The notes under the pieces are model-generated. The model was not told the DNA's origin and did no database searches. It was given only the letters and a program-made list of their open reading frames with translations. Below, one piece after another: positions 21,026 through 49,674 of a DNA stretch of 64,000 bases. The DNA is from a virus (Duplodnaviria; Caudoviricetes). A program made the translations under genes and the position numbers. Location: the IMG/VR virus record IMGVR_UViG_3300035522_000179, positions 185,614 through 249,613 of that record; one strand, given 5' to 3'. Position 1 is the first letter of the stretch. Each line of letters begins with the position of its first letter.

Positions 21026-22561
21026 TTAATATTTCTTTGCATAATCTCTAGCAAGTTCATCTACATCATGTAAGTGAAAACTCTCAAGATACAAAGCTTT
21101 CGACATATTAAGGAGTGTATACTCCACAACTGCATTATCAAAAGCAGACTCTTTTGCTTCGGTGTTAGAACCTTTCTTAATCAGATCCTCTGCGGTCTTT
21201 GCAAAAGACTCAATGAAGCTGATTGCTGCAGAATAAACACTCATTCTTGCCATGTAAACATCATGCGCAATCTGATAAATGGTAACGACCTCTTTTGGAG
21301 TTGTGCACTTATTTGCCTTCGGAACCACAAATGCGTTTGCTTTGTTCACAAACTTCTTTCCATCGGGCTCCTTGAAGAAATCATCCAAAAGCTTTACGTC
21401 TTTCTTAAACTCCCCAATGGCTTCTCCGATAGAATATACCTGAGTCTTTCCCTTAGGGACTCTGTATTTCTGATACTTGATGTTATCAAACATGGTCTTT
21501 GACAATGCCTCATAAGCATCTGCAACCTCTCTTACTTTGGAAGTGGAGATAGGAGCTTTTACCGTAAGACCGGTGGTACTAGCAGAAAGAGAACTTGTCA
21601 GAGCGCTCGTCAACTTATCCGTGTTGATTTTACTTACGCTTGCTCTATAAGCAGTATAAACTGCTTTGTACATCTCATCCACCGTTGCCAAGAACTCAGA
21701 GTTCTTATTTGCAATTGCGTCTCTTGATTTATCTTCCAACTTCTGGTCGTGCTTTTCTTTCATGTTGCTAAACACACCCTCAAAGATAGGAGCATACTCA
21801 CAAGTTTCGGTAACTGCCTGATAAGGAGCAATCTTATTAAACTCATGAATCATCACAGACTCAAACAAAGAAGGAGTGTAAACAGAAGTCTTATTCAAAC
21901 CTCTTGCTCTTACTGCCTCTTCTACATCGCTTTCAGAAGTGATAGACTCATCGTTGGTAAGTTCCTCTTCCAGTTTCTGTCGGTCTTCTTTTTCTTTCTT
22001 TGCAAGTTCTACCTCAGAGATTGCAGTATCTCTTACATTGTCTTTGATTACATCACTCAAATCATCCAGATTATTATCCCGGATAATTGTCGCGAGTTTG
22101 TCATCGATCTCAGGAGTAATCTTAAAAGTATAATCCTCCTCGGTAATGGAATTCGGATCCATGGATTTTGCACGATACTGATCGGATACGATCTTCTCCA
22201 CCGACTCCAAAATATTTTTCATTACCGAAGCATTCTTATTCTTCTTGATTGCTTCCTTTACATAAAACGTAGCATCATTTCCATTGGTTCTTCTGGAAAT
22301 GTAATCTGCTACCACTTTATCCAAATCATCTACGGAAGCAGTTCTTCCGTTTATCTCAGGAATGGAATCCTGACAAACCTTTGTAAAAATACTATTCAAA
22401 CAGGTGTTCACGCCATCCTTCTTAGTGTCCTCCAAACGGCGTGCTTTGATTACCGGATCTGCTTGGACATCGTCTATCGCATTCTGATACCGACGCTGTT
22501 TGTTGAGTTCATCTATAAAGTTAATAACGCTATTTTCTGAATCCACAACTGGGTTACCCAT
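21026..22561 (-). CDS. putative virion head protein
   Basis: 511 aa with SLFE-S, IFE-G and AKE-SA motifs; AACA-N6-TA at 22596-22607. Confidence 0.55.
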   Translation of the reverse strand: MGNPVVDSENSVINFIDELNKQRRYQNAIDDVQADPVIKARRLEDTKKDGVNTCLNSIFTKVCQDSIPEINGRTASVDDLDKVVADYISRRTNGNDATFYVKEAIKKNKNASVMKNILESVEKIVSDQYRAKSMDPNSITEEDYTFKITPEIDDKLATIIRDNNLDDLSDVIKDNVRDTAISEVELAKKEKEDRQKLEEELTNDESITSESDVEEAVRARGLNKTSVYTPSLFESVMIHEFNKIAPYQAVTETCEYAPIFEGVFSNMKEKHDQKLEDKSRDAIANKNSEFLATVDEMYKAVYTAYRASVSKINTDKLTSALTSSLSASTTGLTVKAPISTSKVREVADAYEALSKTMFDNIKYQKYRVPKGKTQVYSIGEAIGEFKKDVKLLDDFFKEPDGKKFVNKANAFVVPKANKCTTPKEVVTIYQIAHDVYMARMSVYSAAISFIESFAKTAEDLIKKGSNTEAKESAFDNAVVEYTLLNMSKALYLESFHLHDVDELARDYAKKY

Positions 22562-43640: not shown

Positions 43641-44915
43641 ATGAGTCCTGTAAATACAGATCAAGATTTTTCTGTTTTGATCAGTCAAGTGAAAGACGGG
43701 AAAACTCTTTATTTATATCCTGTCGTTCGAGATATTGATGTACTACTTAGTACAGAAGAAGATGGTGTTGATACCTTGGGAGATTTATTAGCAAACGGGG
43801 TGACTCCTAGTATTTCTTCTATGAAAGCAATCTTTGTAGACAGCGATGATTTGAAAATTAGTTTTGATGAGGAAGCGAAAACGGGTTCGGTTTCTCATAA
43901 AAATTTAATTCCTGCTGGGTCTACAAATGGTACCAATGGAAATGTGGAACATGGTGGAGATATCAAGATCCCTTCTTTTAGTGTGGATAAGAACGGTCAC
44001 ATTACAGAGTTGGGACTTGCAACGGTTACCCTTCCCGAAGGGTATACCTTGCCAACCGCTAGTACCGAGGAACTTGGTGGAATTAAAATTGGAAATGGCT
44101 TTGTGATTGATAAAACTGGATCTGCATCTATTAAGGAAGCAACAGAAACTGAAGTTGGTGGAGTGCTTCTTACCAATGAGTATGGGGAAGACTTAACAAA
44201 TAAAGCGGCTTCTGGATCTTCCGTGTATTCTGCACTTGTTGCAGCAAATGAATATGCAGATACGGGGATTAAAAATCTGAAAGAGAGTGGAATCTCACCA
44301 GATTTTAATGAACTGGTTGCTATCATTGCAGAATCCAATGGAATCTCGATATCCGTAAATGATGAAAATAAGACCATTACCTTTGGACACAAAAATACGG
44401 TTGAAGCTGGATCGAGTGATGGATCCAATGGGGAATTAAACTATGGAGATTCCATAAAGATTCCTTCTTTTACGTTTGATGAAAACGGTCACATTACTGC
44501 AGTGTCTACAACTGAAGCAACACTTCCAGAGGCTTACTCTCTTCCTATTGCAACACACAACACCCTTGGTGGTGTAATTATTGGAGATAGCATATCGCTT
44601 GATTCCGAAACAGGAAAAATTACGTTGGATGTGGCAACCTTAACAAGCAAAGGAATTGTAATGCTTTCAAACAGTACGGATTCCGATGAGGAAAATATCG
44701 CTGCAACATCTTTTGCAGTAAAGACTGCTTATGGCAATTCAAAAAACTATACCGATACAGCAATTAGTGAATTAACAAATGCGTTTTTGAATGAATTCGT
44801 TTCGGTATCTGGTGGAGATGTAACAGGAAGTTTAAATTTAGAAAAAGGATTAACCATTTCAAATGATGTTTCTATCTCGTATAATACAGACAATGATGAG
44901 GTTAGTTTCTCTTAA
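43641..44915 (+). CDS. tail fibre protein (proximal)
   Basis: LPxA...LGGIxIG repeats, duplicated IKIPSFxxDxNGHIT module, and ATLTSKGIVMLS...AATSFAVKTAY fibre repeat. Confidence 0.75.
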   Translation: MSPVNTDQDFSVLISQVKDGKTLYLYPVVRDIDVLLSTEEDGVDTLGDLLANGVTPSISSMKAIFVDSDDLKISFDEEAKTGSVSHKNLIPAGSTNGTNGNVEHGGDIKIPSFSVDKNGHITELGLATVTLPEGYTLPTASTEELGGIKIGNGFVIDKTGSASIKEATETEVGGVLLTNEYGEDLTNKAASGSSVYSALVAANEYADTGIKNLKESGISPDFNELVAIIAESNGISISVNDENKTITFGHKNTVEAGSSDGSNGELNYGDSIKIPSFTFDENGHITAVSTTEATLPEAYSLPIATHNTLGGVIIGDSISLDSETGKITLDVATLTSKGIVMLSNSTDSDEENIAATSFAVKTAYGNSKNYTDTAISELTNAFLNEFVSVSGGDVTGSLNLEKGLTISNDVSISYNTDNDEVSFS

Positions 44916-45039
44916 AAACAAGAAAACACGTGAAGATTAAAAGTTATCTTCACGTGTTTTTTCAAGGACAATACTATTAATTACACTTTAAGTATTGCTA
45001 AAATACTGAAATTTTAAAATAAATAAAGGAGATCATAAA

Positions 45040-47115
45040 ATGTCAAGAAGTTGGAATTTTAATGGTTATCTGAAAGAAAATGGAAAACGGGTTGTAACCG
45101 ATGCCGCAGCTACCATTACTCAGATCGACAGTTCTGAGAAGCCATCTGCGGAGGTCACAACCGATGAAGAAAGTGGAAAATTATTATTTAATTTAAATAT
45201 ACCAAAATCCGGAGGAGTATCCGGTGATTACCTTCCGTTAGCAGGAGGAAGTCTGAGTGGTAGTATTATCACTCCAGCGAGTAAAACCTTAGGAATTTAT
45301 CCTTCTGAAAATAGTACAGGTCAGATCGGATCTTCTGATAAAAAATTTTATCAGATCTATGGCGATAATCTCGTTATAGGAGATGATGCATCGCGGACGG
45401 TATCTATATCTTCTGGAACGATTCAGATAAATGCTCATAGTTATGTCAATTCAGATGGTGAAGAGTGTTATGATCATGTCTATTTTGGAATTGGTGATGC
45501 CTCCATGCAACAAATAAAAGGAGGTCAGTTAAATATTGAATCAAGTAGAATAAAAGTATGGGGTTCCAAAAAAGCTATGATTCATGGGTCAAGTTCTTGT
45601 ATTGATTTGACTGAAGGCGGTAAAATTATCATGAGAGCCACCAATGGAATTACTTTTGACGATGCCGTTACATTTAATGATGAAGTTACAGCAAAAACTA
45701 CCGTAACCATGGGAGGGAATATTATATTACCTGCAAGTAATAGTAAAGGAATCTATCCCGCAAGCAATAACTATGGACAGATTGGTTCCCCTAATAAGAA
45801 CATCTATCAGATTTATGCTACAAATATAAATGCTAGTCAATTATATACAAACGATATAGTATTAGGAATTCATAACAAAAAACATATAAAATTCGGAGAT
45901 ATGGCATATATCGATTATAATACTGATACTGATTATAGGCTTGAAATAGCATCCTCATCGTGCATGGTAATATATAATACCGTTAAGGATAACAATATTG
46001 TTTTAAAGGATAACGGTTCTATTCATATATCTGTCCCAACCAATAATACTATTCGGCTTCAATCTTCACCTACCGGAGACTGTGGTAGCTTAGAGATACA
46101 CAACCAAAATGCGACACTTCACTTAAATAACTTTACAATGACAACACCATATGGGGTTATAGATGGGAGTTTTTCAGATGAAGATCCTTATTTGTTATCC
46201 TTATATTCTAACGTAACACGTAATCGGGTGACTGACAGTTCGGCATGTTCACAAAGACGTGTTAGAATGCGAGGAGACTTTATATATAGATCGGATGATA
46301 CAAAAATTACTGTACAATATGAAGGTGGGACTATTTACCTATTATCAAATCATTATAAGGAAGGGTCAAGTTATAATACTTCATCTGGTACGTTTTCTCA
46401 TGCAGAAGGTTCTAACACGACGGCATCAGGTTTCTATTCTCATGCAGAAGGTTGTAACACGACGGCAGGTTCCTATTCTCATGCAGAAGGATATTACACG
46501 ACGGCATCAGGTTCCTATTCTCATGCAGAAGGATATTACACGACGGCACCTTACGCTTCTCATGCAGAAGGATATTACACGACGGTATCAGGTTCCTATT
46601 CTCATGCAGAAGGATATTACACGACGGCACCAGGTTCCTATCAACACATACAAGGAAAATTCAATACATCTGATGCATCCTCAGCTCACATAGTTGGTGG
46701 TGGTACTTCATCCGTTTCCAGGAAAAATATTCATACCTTAGACTGGTCTGGAAACGGATGGTTTGCAGGAGATGTTACCACCAATACCCATAAATTGAAT
46801 TCTTCTCTTCAACTTTATGCGGAAGCGTATGATATCAGTACCACTGCACAAACGTTCACTTTAGGTGTTGGAAAGACTTATTTACTTATGGTATATGCAC
46901 GTACGGAATCAACCAACGCTGTTTATGGAATGAGCGCACGTATGATTGCTACACCGGATTCATCATCTAGTACTGCAAATGTAACGATACTTGCTATGGG
47001 AACGACATCCAATACTGGATTTACGATTACCGCTGGTAATTTCCAAGTATCTGTAAAAGCATCTTCATCTACCTATGAAGTAGACTGTGTACTTTATGAA
47101 ACAAGCGGAGATTAA
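45040..47115 (+). CDS. tail fibre / receptor-binding protein with YadA-head-like SHAEG repeats
   Basis: YLPLAGGSLSG, duplicated GIYP..GQIGS module, six SHAEG repeats, and IVGGGTS...TLDWSGNGWFAG. Confidence 0.75.
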   Translation: MSRSWNFNGYLKENGKRVVTDAAATITQIDSSEKPSAEVTTDEESGKLLFNLNIPKSGGVSGDYLPLAGGSLSGSIITPASKTLGIYPSENSTGQIGSSDKKFYQIYGDNLVIGDDASRTVSISSGTIQINAHSYVNSDGEECYDHVYFGIGDASMQQIKGGQLNIESSRIKVWGSKKAMIHGSSSCIDLTEGGKIIMRATNGITFDDAVTFNDEVTAKTTVTMGGNIILPASNSKGIYPASNNYGQIGSPNKNIYQIYATNINASQLYTNDIVLGIHNKKHIKFGDMAYIDYNTDTDYRLEIASSSCMVIYNTVKDNNIVLKDNGSIHISVPTNNTIRLQSSPTGDCGSLEIHNQNATLHLNNFTMTTPYGVIDGSFSDEDPYLLSLYSNVTRNRVTDSSACSQRRVRMRGDFIYRSDDTKITVQYEGGTIYLLSNHYKEGSSYNTSSGTFSHAEGSNTTASGFYSHAEGCNTTAGSYSHAEGYYTTASGSYSHAEGYYTTAPYASHAEGYYTTVSGSYSHAEGYYTTAPGSYQHIQGKFNTSDASSAHIVGGGTSSVSRKNIHTLDWSGNGWFAGDVTTNTHKLNSSLQLYAEAYDISTTAQTFTLGVGKTYLLMVYARTESTNAVYGMSARMIATPDSSSSTANVTILAMGTTSNTGFTITAGNFQVSVKASSSTYEVDCVLYETSGD
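46396..46640 (+). repeat. tandem in-frame repeats of 42/39 nt (SHAEGYYTTASGSY)
   Basis: tctcatgcagaagg starts at 46396, 46438, 46477, 46519, 46558 and 46600. Confidence 0.95.
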
Positions 47116-47129
47116 GGAGGATAACCATA

Positions 47130-47825
47130 ATGCCCTATATTAAATTTAATAACACCGACGTAACTATGCCGTTATCCCGGTGTGTACTTTATCGTGATCG
47201 TGTAGAAATCTTCGGGGAAGGAATCAAAGAATTTGCAGAAGAATACATCGCAAGTATCCCGGAAGATTTTCAGATCTTTGTAATAAAAGAAAAACCTAAA
47301 ACAGAAGAAGTTGTAGATCCCAAAATCGAAGAGATTACCGAAGATACCGATGAAACAACCAATGAAACTAGTGATTCTGAAATCACAGAAACAACAGAAG
47401 ATTCTACTGAAGAAAATGATGAGGAACCTACTGAAGAAGTAATAGAAGAAGTATCAGAAGAAACAACTTCCGAAGATGATGAACCTACAGAAGAAGAGGC
47501 TACTTTAGAAGAAACGAAAGAACCCGAGGAGCCAGTATTCGAAGAGCCTGAGATCGAAACCAGAGAATATCCTGGATTTAGGATCTTAAGAGACGACGAT
47601 ACCGTATTGAAAGATTGTGAGAATTTCATTTACAAATGGAATATTTACACAGACTACGAAGATGGTATTGTTTTAACCTCTTCAAAAACGGATCGAGAGC
47701 GCAAGCCAGTTGAGAATGCAGACGAACCTGTGGAAGTTGTAGATCCATTAAATAACGATGATCTGACCGAATGTGTAGCAGATCTGATGTATGAACTTAG
47801 CTGTAATGAGCTTGGCTTATCATAA
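47130..47825 (+). CDS. tail-fibre-associated protein with E/T-rich insert
   Basis: Follows the fibre gene; C-terminal DLTECVADLMYE as in XkdW-like chaperones. Confidence 0.55.
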   Translation: MPYIKFNNTDVTMPLSRCVLYRDRVEIFGEGIKEFAEEYIASIPEDFQIFVIKEKPKTEEVVDPKIEEITEDTDETTNETSDSEITETTEDSTEENDEEPTEEVIEEVSEETTSEDDEPTEEEATLEETKEPEEPVFEEPEIETREYPGFRILRDDDTVLKDCENFIYKWNIYTDYEDGIVLTSSKTDRERKPVENADEPVEVVDPLNNDDLTECVADLMYELSCNELGLS

Positions 47826-47846
47826 AATAAGAAAGGAAGAAAAATC

Positions 47847-47987
47847 ATGGCTTATAAAATCATGAAAAAACTGATTACCGATAGAAAAAAGACAAAAGAC
47901 GAACTGATCAATATGGCAGATGTTTATTATGGTGCTGGAAGACTCACAGATGAGGAGTATCAGGAAATCATCACATTGATTGGTTAA
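47847..47987 (+). CDS. XkdX-like small protein (46 aa, absent from the ORF track)
   Basis: gaaagga RBS; MAYKIMKKLI...DVYYGAGRLTDEEYQEIITLIG. Confidence 0.75.
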   Translation: MAYKIMKKLITDRKKTKDELINMADVYYGAGRLTDEEYQEIITLIG

Positions 47988-48079
47988 GTTCGTTCACTAC
48001 AAGATAATATGGAAGAGGTATTTAGTCTCTTCCATATTATCTTTTCATTTCACACGGTGTATTCTTATTATTTTTAATG

Positions 48080-48088
48080 ATATATTAT
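48080..48088 (+). promoter_or_regulatory. early-type phage promoter ATATATTAT
   Basis: Followed by ~270 nt of structured sequence with no ORF in the track, then a terminator. Confidence 0.7.
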
Positions 48089-48366
48089 TATCGTGTATGA
48101 GAGTAATCATTATACATTATTCTTCATACAGAAAAGATAACATACAAAGTATGTAGTGTGGGTATGGAACTTTAGACTGCTCAAAACAAAAAATAACAGC
48201 CTACTATGAATCAACAATAATTCAGGCGAAATGCTCATCCGTCACTTGTTTGCGGATGAGTTCCCTGTAAGTCCTGATGAGCACTATAACAGACCGGTGA
48301 AAGTGCGAGCCGGAGCAGTCCATAGTAGGCAAAATAATTAGTTAAAAACAACTGATTATTTTTTTG
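48089..48366 (+). ncRNA. candidate early structured RNA with crossing helices
   Basis: Helices 48175-48182/48313-48320, 48199-48208/48321-48330, ctcatccg/cggatgag and tcagg/cctga; terminator aataattagtt/aactgattatt plus T-run. Confidence 0.65.
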
Positions 48367-48448
48367 TATTTTTTTTGTACCTCCCTACTTTTCTATTCTC
48401 AAAAAGACAATATAAAATAAAAAGATTAATATAAATGGAGGAAACAAA

Positions 48449-49441
48449 ATGGAAATTATTGATCTTGATAAATCCTGTACTATCAAATGGAGATTAACTG
48501 ATGCATGTAATTACCATTGTAGTTACTGTATCAGAAGACCATTTATCACAGATCAACCCAGTGGTCTTTTGGATATGAAGGAGTGCGAAGATGCCATTCC
48601 TCAGATCTGTAGAATTTCAGAAGAATTAAAAGAAATCAATCAAAAGAATGTAAAGATTGATTTGATTGGTGGAGAGGTTGCGATCTATCCAAGACTCAAT
48701 AAGATTCTGGATAGACTCTATCAGTGCGATGCCATTGGTAGTGTAAATATCACAACCAACCTCTTTAATACTGTAGAGTATTATCTGGATCTCTTTTCGG
48801 TTGCGGATAGTTACAATAAGTCTCTTTCTATGACAGCAAGTTTTCACATTGAATTTGCGAAGTTGGATGAGTTCATTGAAAAATCAAAAGCAATCAATGC
48901 AAAGTATCATCCGAAGTTTAAATGTGAAACCGTTGTGACGCCGATCAATACTCAGTATCAGGAGTTCATTGATCTTTGTGAAGCAAACGATATCTACTAC
49001 ATGGCAGAAGAGGATCTCTTTAACCAAAACTACCGTGGACAGAAGTTATCTAATAAGAAAACTGCTCCAAGATATCTAGTAAAGGACGACTTTGGAAATG
49101 AAGAGTATTTCAATACCAGAAATGAGTACTTAAAGAAGTATGGTGTGAATGGATACTGCATTCCTTCCAGAGGTGGAAAGTGTACCAGAGATATGAACTA
49201 TGTTTACATTGAAAAGAACGTTGTATTTCGATGCACTGATCAGGTTCCTATCGAGAAGTTCCATGTGAGCAAGGAACGTAGAACTTGTGTAAGGGATTCT
49301 TGTACTTTGTGTGGGCATATGAGTATTTCCATACCGAAAAGGAGTACCATTGCAAAGCAGGAGTCCGTTACCAATGAAACTCAGAAACCTACAAAAAAGA
49401 AAAGTTACTTGGACGAATGTCCTAGAGTCGATCGACTCTAG
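48449..49441 (+). CDS. radical SAM enzyme with Cys-rich C-terminal (twitch/SPASM-like) extension
   Basis: WRLTDACNYHCSYC, LIGGEV, ITTN and ASFH; C-terminal C...C...C...CxxxxCxxC. Confidence 0.85.
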   Translation: MEIIDLDKSCTIKWRLTDACNYHCSYCIRRPFITDQPSGLLDMKECEDAIPQICRISEELKEINQKNVKIDLIGGEVAIYPRLNKILDRLYQCDAIGSVNITTNLFNTVEYYLDLFSVADSYNKSLSMTASFHIEFAKLDEFIEKSKAINAKYHPKFKCETVVTPINTQYQEFIDLCEANDIYYMAEEDLFNQNYRGQKLSNKKTAPRYLVKDDFGNEEYFNTRNEYLKKYGVNGYCIPSRGGKCTRDMNYVYIEKNVVFRCTDQVPIEKFHVSKERRTCVRDSCTLCGHMSISIPKRSTIAKQESVTNETQKPTKKKSYLDECPRVDRL

Positions 49442-49449
49442 AAAGGAGA

Positions 49450-49674
49450 ATGAATATGACTGAACCGAAAAATACAACTACAAATGAGGAAACTTTAACA
49501 GAAGGTCTTACCCCTATGACTCCTTGCATTGTTTACACAAAAGATGATATCGATGAATGTCTGGAATCGTTCAATACCCTTACTATAACTGGTTGGGAGA
49601 ACGTGTGTAAACTCGCAAAGATTCATTCCATCCTTGCAGAGAAAGGGATTAACGCTTCTCTACAACAAAAATAA
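49450..49674 (+). CDS. small protein, paralogue of 29440..29727
   Basis: Shared YxKDxI...GxxN pattern. Confidence 0.65.
   Translation: MNMTEPKNTTTNEETLTEGLTPMTPCIVYTKDDIDECLESFNTLTITGWENVCKLAKIHSILAEKGINASLQQK

Follow-up and report, generated by a model that had tools for sequence, protein, structure and literature searches.

A probable stand-alone early RNA with interleaved pseudoknots on an accessory intergenic cassette of jumbo phages

The locus and its transcription unit

The stretch of DNA considered here (the window) comprises 64,000 nucleotides (nt) of a caudoviral genome, positions 185,614 to 249,613 of IMG/VR record IMGVR_UViG_3300035522_000179; it forms the final 64 kb of this 249.6-kb virus record, which has a G+C content of 36%. 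The element in question lies on the plus strand, between a tail-fibre operon and a gene for a radical S-adenosylmethionine (SAM) protein, and consists of an early promoter, a predicted structured RNA and a terminator. An initial annotation, made from the letters of the window alone, had described it as a stand-alone structured RNA driven by an early promoter, with a hairpin at its 5' end and a terminator of its own, and this description is supported by the analysis reported below. The features that delimit the unit are as follows (window coordinates here and throughout, unless genome positions are specified).

48080–48094, plus strand: early promoter of the virion RNA polymerase type, ATATATTAT (core 48080–48088) followed by 6 nt; exact AR9-type core, with a predicted +1 at G48095
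48095–48129, plus strand: 5'-terminal hairpin of 13 bp with one bulge, found only in the studied phage's version of the RNA (RNAfold, -11.4 kcal/mol; identical in strain L032)
48140–48154, plus strand: weak 6-bp hairpin, specific to the studied phage's version (RNAfold, -3.0 kcal/mol)
48331–48378, plus strand: AU-rich 13-bp terminator hairpin (48331–48362; -9.6 kcal/mol), then a U7-GUA-U8 tract

Two recurrent promoter-like motifs in the genome correspond to the early and late promoters of the Bacillus jumbo phage AR9, which have been defined experimentally as AAATATATATTAT-(6N)-G+1 and AACA-(6N)-TA/G respectively (PMC5312081); the late consensus of the studied phage can be extended to AAAACA-ATTTTT-TAA. 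The RNA polymerase beta domain Rpb2_6 (beta-like) has two matches above cut-off, at 138.6 kb and 178.2 kb of the genome, while no Rpb1_2 domain was detected in the phage genome, as can happen with very diverged subunits. The AR9-type promoter motifs, taken together with the Rpb2_6 matches, therefore identify an AR9-like jumbo phage, the uncultured host of which is probably a Firmicute. Tubulin, gyrase and tail genes are also encoded.

The promoter matches the AR9 early consensus, and ATATATTAT occurs in 32 copies in the genome, positioned as promoters, mostly 20–80 nt ahead of a start codon; the AAAT found upstream in AR9 reads AATG at this locus. The predicted +1 coincides precisely with the base that opens the 5' hairpin. 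At the other end, the terminator hairpin with its U tract is present but lies outside the criteria of the terminator scan, which demands three G-C pairs and hence left it unflagged; the U tract is found on the plus strand only, and the terminator is probably leaky. The predicted product is an RNA of about 270–285 nt, extending from 48095 to about 48370 on the plus strand, and on the model of AR9 it would be transcribed by the injected virion RNA polymerase immediately after infection.

Two short sequence coincidences occur within these limits. The stretch AACA-GCCTAC-TA at 48195–48206, inside the RNA, satisfies the minimal AR9 late-promoter rule; as a late promoter it fits the extended consensus of the studied phage poorly, and the match is probably due to chance. 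An A-rich linker segment (48188–48196) is perfectly complementary over 9 nt to 48356–48364, where the terminator gives way to the U tract, although as a low-complexity match this may mean nothing.

The folded core

Downstream of the two 5' hairpins, the RNA is predicted to form a compact core made of the following elements.

48175–48182, plus strand: helix A, 5' strand GACUGCUC (gactgctc), pairing with 48313–48320 to form pseudoknot 1 (-12.6 kcal/mol)
48183–48198, plus strand: A-rich linker L1 between A and B, with AAACAAA common to all three known sequence types
48199–48208, plus strand: helix B, 5' strand GCCUACUAUG (gcctactatg), pairing with 48321–48330 (-14.8 kcal/mol)
48209–48222, plus strand: single-stranded A/U-rich junction; its AAUCAA is also found in homologue G013 and reads AAUUAA in a third copy (alignment A8)
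48223–48267, plus strand: P2 of the studied phage, a long hairpin (45 nt) with CGAAA and CUCAUCCG/CGGAUGAG (-20 kcal/mol)
48274–48283, plus strand: CUGAUGAGCA, alternative partner of 48232–48239 (inverted-repeat search), at the place of the homologues' P2 3' strand, which directly precedes P3
48281–48313, plus strand: inner pseudoknot P3/P4, with P3 formed by GCACU 48281–85 and AGUGC 48302–06, and P4 by (C)CGG 48294–97 and CCG(G) 48310–13
48313–48320, plus strand: helix A, 3' strand GAGCAGUC (gagcagtc), pairing with 48175–82
48321–48330, plus strand: helix B, 3' strand CAUAGUAGGC (catagtaggc), contiguous with A' and pairing with 48199–208

The two long-range helices follow one another in the order A-B-A'-B', with A' abutting B', and as P3 in turn crosses P4, the core has two interleaved pseudoknots. 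An adjacent crossing arrangement with 18 exact pairs, as seen here, was found in none of 2000 dinucleotide shuffles (0/2000), the maximum of 17 being reached four times. Compared with shuffled sequences, the folding z-score is -5.7 on the plus strand and -4.6 on the minus strand. The core (48170–48335) has a G+C content of 52.8%, the joint highest among the non-coding 108-nt windows of the genome.

The fold does not correspond to an Rfam family. A search of the window against Rfam 15, including its riboswitches, ribozymes, tmRNA, RNase P, 6S, pRNA, exoribonuclease-resistant RNAs (xrRNAs), GOLLD/ROOL and others, gave no matches at the gathering scores and only chance-level ones at E <= 10, and ARAGORN detected no tRNA or tmRNA. 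Two candidate identities were rejected as being at chance level, namely CRISPR-DR63 (16.6 bits) and antisense pairing to the tail-fibre mRNA (a 17/19 match, E 0.68). The sequence features listed in the initial annotation, among them the crossing helices with adjacent 3' strands and the GC-richer core (relative to the 36% of the genome), are all found where it placed them.

Relatives of the RNA

No DNA similarity to the RNA region was found in cultured phages, and nhmmer, blastn and a covariance model all failed to detect paralogues in the phage's own genome. The same phage is present in three other samples but is 100% identical in each, and hence uninformative. Strain L032 is 97% identical genome-wide and 98% identical within the RNA; its seven changes all fall outside helices A, B, P3, P4 and the terminator stem (p about 0.1), a comparison that is uninformative because the strain is too close. 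The RNA was not found in relatives anchored on the radical SAM gene, which comprised 14 viral loci, 12 full-length records and contigs from Logan, nor in L033 and L034, the relatives anchored on the upstream gene.

Anchoring on GyrA instead led to relatives that, at 57–61% GyrA identity, are truly syntenic jumbo phages, sharing tubulin, a small Zn protein, the large RNA gap, gyrB, gyrA and a tail fibre. A single-sequence covariance model, applied to the whole IMG/VR records of this group, gave one clear match, in the 279-kb phage G013 (44.8 bits, and 101 bits with the later model R2). A pattern built from the conserved words recovered six identical copies of the G013 type. The third sequence type came from a pattern scan of genome contigs, alongside 15 chance matches, and lies on a contig binned in a Lachnospiraceae metagenome-assembled genome (MAG; 89.6 bits). 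This contig represents phage DNA, since its flanking genes are 67–79% identical at the protein level to genes of the studied phage.

Further searches added no other type. An 18-mer pattern spanning A'B' found nothing in viral contigs and seven chance matches in metagenome contigs; three further patterns applied to viral contigs returned nothing beyond the G013 type and chance matches; none of the 150 further Lachnospiraceae genomes sampled yielded the RNA; and model R2 did not find it in the other related viral records, including that of a complete 275-kb phage with a GyrA 59% identical. Within the core, the studied phage is 64% identical to the two homologues, which are 87% identical to one another.

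Compensatory change and conserved architecture

The homologues were compared in an alignment of four rows representing the three sequence types (A8), annotated with the structure including its pseudoknots. Across the 26 pairs tested, 99% of the pair cells are standard, and nine pairs are changed on both sides (one in helix A, six in helix B, one in P3 and one in P4). When the structure is slid by one to three columns as a control, only 27–39% of cells are paired and the number of pairs changed on both sides falls to 0–1. In helix A, which remains 100% paired, the A-U at 48176/48319 is replaced by G-C in both homologues; in helix B, both sides are changed in 6/10 pairs; in P3, a G-C becomes C-G in the MAG copy; and in P4, a C-G becomes G-C in both homologues. 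The model used for searching and alignment contained neither helix A nor P4 in its structure, and the support for these two hence does not derive from model fitting. All four helices are thus kept through compensating changes in two diverged homologues, as read from the aligned sequences. The initial annotation had named in advance a lack of such changes in the two crossing helices as what would count against it; they were found in both, with one pair in A and six in B against 0–1 in the slid controls.

The conserved core amounts to about 100–165 nt, or about 100 nt without P2. Its invariant words are the loops AACAGAC (48288–94) and GGUGA (48296–300), the linker AAACAAA and most of A/A'; linker L1 as a whole is 7 nt shorter in the homologues and 1 nt shorter in L032. 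When G013 and the MAG copy are compared over their full lengths, 18 pairs have both sides changed, among them pairs in a short P2 hairpin and in three hairpins belonging to a 5' domain of 180 nt, which the studied phage's copy does not have. The P2 of the homologues has 5–6 bp and the loop ACUAGCCAC, and covaries between GUGGA/UCCAC and UAUGGG/CCCAUA while retaining the same loop.

Three positions in three phages

In both G013 and the MAG contig, the upstream gene points away from the RNA and the downstream gene runs towards it. Because the next gene is convergent in both, the RNA is a stand-alone unit in these phages and no 5' leader. Each homologue is preceded by an early motif with one mismatch, at the same distance from the G as in the studied phage (ATATAATAT-N6-G and ATATATAAT-N6-G), and each has a hairpin and U tract straight after B'. 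The first of these promoter variants, ATATAATAT, is found again elsewhere in G013. The 16-nt word at the promoter of the G013 RNA, ATATAATATTTTAGTG, has a second, exact copy in the same genome at G013:C1:7882–7897, 161 kb away, where the model did not find a second RNA core.

G013 and the MAG contig are homologous over about 530 nt, covering the promoter region, the RNA and the terminator, beyond which the homology ends; the pairs of genes flanking the RNA differ between the two. Both of these gene pairs adjoin one another without the RNA in the studied phage, with a 90-nt gap at genome 60449–60540 in one case and overlapping matches at 21227–21274 in the other. The occupation of three loci in three related phages, with empty sites at the corresponding positions here, implies that the cassette of promoter, RNA and terminator has moved, and the further relatives that lack the RNA indicate that it is an accessory, movable unit.

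Alternative explanations

The features on either side of the unit bear on whether it might instead be part of a neighbouring operon.

48001–48043, plus strand: strong terminator hairpin closing the upstream late tail-fibre operon and insulating the RNA unit (terminator scan, -23.2 kcal/mol)
48449–49441, plus strand: radical SAM gene (Pfam and NCBIfam), downstream and not part of the RNA family

The RNA could act in cis on the radical SAM operon, as a leader of the riboswitch or attenuator type whose fold would decide termination at 48331–48362 before the gene begins at 48449. The gene has the same orientation and its start codon lies 82 nt from the terminator; the terminator is weak; inspection of 48379–48448 by eye against the consensus sequences revealed no early or late promoter motif; and AR9 has 5' untranslated regions as long as 491 nt (PMC5312081). 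As no other promoter motif is visible ahead of the gene, read-through into it is possible in this phage. Alternative pairings also exist, TGCTCATC/GATGAGCA and CTCATCCG/CGGATGAG both being detected by an inverted-repeat search, but when the alternative fold is forced (48232–39 with 48276–83) it is 8 kcal/mol less stable and it is not conserved: the 45-nt hairpin at 48223–67, which contains one arm of the proposed switch, is a lineage-specific expansion, in place of which the homologues have their short P2, and CCUGAUGAG aligns with CACUCCACA in G013 or CACCCCAUA in the MAG copy. The alternative partner occupies the position of the 3' strand of the homologues' P2, its word not being conserved in sequence, and may be a relic of a short P2 left after the insertion. 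No clear antiterminator was found either; the terminator abuts B' without overlapping it, and a search found only weak AU-rich alternatives that involve the region of the 5' hairpin (about -9 kcal/mol); no Rfam riboswitch family is matched; and in both homologues the convergent next gene leaves nothing to regulate. Conversely, the homologues of the radical SAM gene (49–53% identity, in phages of about 145 kb) lie about 60 nt after the previous gene, have a sigma-A-like promoter of their own and are associated with no such RNA, so that it does not represent a leader conserved across this gene family. A leader function is accordingly judged unlikely. The conformational switch envisaged in the initial annotation survives as a pair of possible pairings in one phage but not as a conserved device, and the attenuation of the radical SAM gene that it offered as an alternative is not a property of the family.

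A self-cleaving ribozyme is very unlikely, whether of the type II hammerhead kind in degenerate form, with CUGAUGA, CGAAA and GUC, or of a novel class based on the double pseudoknot. An alignment of Hammerhead_II at 48224–48290 places the core words in the correct order, and the nested pseudoknots with the invariant loop nucleotides AACAGAC and GGUGA recall small ribozymes, which are typically compact and have both of these characteristics. The hammerhead (RF02276) nevertheless scores 14.5 bits (E 1.5–4.5) where the gathering score is 37, its stems II, III and I would have just 2, 3 and 4 pairs and compete with a hairpin of -20 kcal/mol, and both homologues lack the hairpin that bears GAAA and do not conserve CUGAUGA; no positive evidence whatever favours a new class. 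The absence of the 45-nt hairpin and the lack of conservation of the words lead to the rejection of both hammerhead and switch as family features, such that the CUGAUGA and CGAAA words noted at the outset are real whereas the ribozyme they evoked is very unlikely. An element that functions as DNA (a site of recombination, an origin or a packaging signal) is highly improbable, as is a set of inverted repeats produced by chance. The position of the cassette at module boundaries, its movement between loci and the good folding of both strands would suit such an element, but the promoter and U tract are strand-specific, the G-U pairs kept in the homologues function only in plus-strand RNA, crossing helices with compensating changes have no rationale at the level of DNA, and chance repeats are excluded by the shuffles. 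It is harder still to credit that the unit is a small protein gene whose RNA structure is incidental. The region had originally been described as devoid of ORFs, which is nearly right: a 36-codon ATG ORF exists at 48231–48341, the sole two substitutions in it relative to L032 (48263 C>U and 48266 U>C) are at synonymous third positions, a weak hint of coding, and in L032 a gene caller predicted an ORF of 58 amino acids (aa) there. However, the start lies inside the hairpin missing from the homologues, whose ORFs reach only 22 codons; a 1-nt indel in L032 alters the upstream frame; the ORF has a weak Shine-Dalgarno sequence and a codon score that ranks at the 4.5th percentile among real genes; and no homologue other than the query itself was found among 1.84 billion protein representatives, nor any PHROG match.

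Interpretation and relation to known systems

The interpretation we favour, with a confidence somewhat better than even, is that 48095 to about 48370 on the plus strand is a stand-alone, early structured non-coding RNA that acts in trans, represents a new family outside Rfam and is carried as an accessory, movable cassette in jumbo phages. Once made by the virion polymerase, it would act as a compact folded particle, most likely by binding or titrating a host or phage protein in the course of takeover or counter-defence, or else by persisting as a nuclease-resistant species. Host-takeover and counter-defence factors are expected to be accessory and expressed very early, as is predicted for this RNA.

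Several points weigh against this interpretation. Action in trans is extrapolated purely from the class of early, accessory and compact elements to which the RNA would belong, and nothing in the sequences points to a particular target, protein partner or ligand. In the studied phage, the RNA is followed by a co-oriented, promoterless-looking gene, such that a role in cis is possible at this locus. The covariation statistics are thin, as three sequence types amount to two independent comparisons, and helices A, P3 and P4 have one compensated pair each. In the homologues, helix B forms only with a bulge or a shift of register by 1 nt, and their 5' domain offers the 3' strand of this helix another possible partner (UAUACAAG in L067 and L083; alignment A9, columns 102–109 with 285–292); as both segments are invariant, the two pairings are indistinguishable. 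Furthermore, the 5' third of the RNA is non-homologous between the studied phage and the other two types.

Small RNAs (sRNAs) have been described in other jumbo phages, with 11 in 201phi2-1 and a gp182-leader sRNA in phiKZ, some of them arising from premature termination (PMC11512511). The RNA described here resembles the sRNAs of large phages in being non-coding, in having its own start and terminator and in lacking an assigned function, and some of those are likewise conserved among related jumbo phages. By contrast, they are mostly hairpin-type or tRNA-derived and syntenic, whereas this RNA has a double pseudoknot supported by covariation and a locus that differs from phage to phage, and there is no relation to them in sequence or structure. 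Stable RNAs of large phages also include RNAs C and D of T4. Non-coding RNAs are proving numerous in giant phages that encode RNA polymerases of their own, nearly all of them without an assigned role; the present one combines a defined promoter and +1, a compensated double-pseudoknot core, the lack of an Rfam family and three positions in three phages. With regard to its mobility, the cassette recalls the moron-like or PeSL-type cassettes of large phages, which are reportedly short units bounded by promoter and terminator and inserted between differing gene pairs of related phages; these carry a protein gene, while the payload here is a structured RNA.

The architecture invites comparison with the class 1 xrRNA of flaviviruses, in which a three-way junction holds two interwoven pseudoknots, one of them formed via the 5' flank (PMC8571300). 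In both RNAs, a closing helix surrounds two hairpins and the order of the paired segments is analogous; the strand just ahead of the 3' strand of that helix pairs with sequence located 5' of it, and a second, interwoven pseudoknot engages a hairpin loop. The differences are considerable, with pseudoknot 1 having 1–2 bp in the xrRNA against 8 bp here, the second pseudoknot extending beyond the closing helix in the xrRNA but remaining inside it here, and a size of about 70 nt against a core of 100–165 nt; as there is neither sequence similarity nor an Rfam xrRNA match, the likeness is one of analogy only. As regards the type II hammerhead (RF02276), although C-GAAA, GUC and CUGAUGA-G occur in type II order in the studied phage's copy, the score far below threshold, the near absence of stems II and III and the unconserved words mark it as a non-member. 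A bolder proposal, which we consider rather improbable, is that the double-pseudoknot core constitutes a new functional class of RNA, either a mechanically knotted exoribonuclease-resistant module or a new small ribozyme, on a hopping intergenic cassette. If true, the former would be a phage counterpart of the flaviviral xrRNA, directed against the RNase J-type 5'-3' decay of Firmicutes and leaving a stable early decoy RNA.

The core, at about 100 nt without P2, is small enough for direct structural and biochemical work. A methodological point also emerges, namely that a pseudoknot predicted from a single sequence becomes testable when relatives are reached via a conserved neighbouring gene rather than the adjacent one.

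Neighbouring genes and other regions

Leakage past the weak terminator probably also feeds early transcripts of the radical SAM gene, as a local side effect in the studied phage only. In such read-through transcripts CCUCC at 48383–48387, which is complementary over just 5 bp to the radical SAM Shine-Dalgarno sequence GGAGG (48437–48441) 50 nt downstream, could mask the ribosome site. The gene and the 74-aa ORF that accompanies it (48449–49674) are specific to the lineage of the studied phage, and the radical SAM protein has no match in cultured phages; in the syntenic relatives a 391-aa gene without a family assignment (L046:12512–13687), co-oriented with gyrA, lies between gyrA and the tail-fibre module, replacing both the radical SAM gene and the RNA. 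In the phages of about 145 kb the gene preceding the radical SAM homologue encodes a tail spike, and in L002, L006, L013 and L025 a sigma-A-type promoter (TTGATT/TTGCTT, a 17-nt spacer and the extended -10 TGaTATAAT) is located about 60 nt before the start, which suggests early expression by the host polymerase. A further homologue, on the 102-kb contig L005 (Logan SRR33454271), can be translated only if TAG encodes Gln; given this reading and the presence of gyrB and gyrA directly after it, the contig derives from a stop-codon-recoded relative.

Upstream of the RNA are the genes for the tail fibre, phrog_25468 and an XkdX-like protein of 46 aa (phrog_2310). The tail-fibre module (43641–47987, compared with L032:3241–7795) is strongly diverged between strains that are 97% identical elsewhere, a 231-aa protein being just 72% identical and a 691-aa protein replaced in part; the divergence ends exactly at the XkdX-like gene that precedes the RNA, and resembles the exchange of a host-range cassette.

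The sole other non-coding 108-nt window with 52.8% G+C lies on the minus strand at genome 18630–18776 (G000; about 430–580 in L043). It too is situated behind an early promoter, ATATATTAT at genome 18905 on the minus strand, with a gap of 449 nt before the next long ORF, and it has no Rfam match. This region may encode another early structured RNA, with no sequence relation to the one at 48080.

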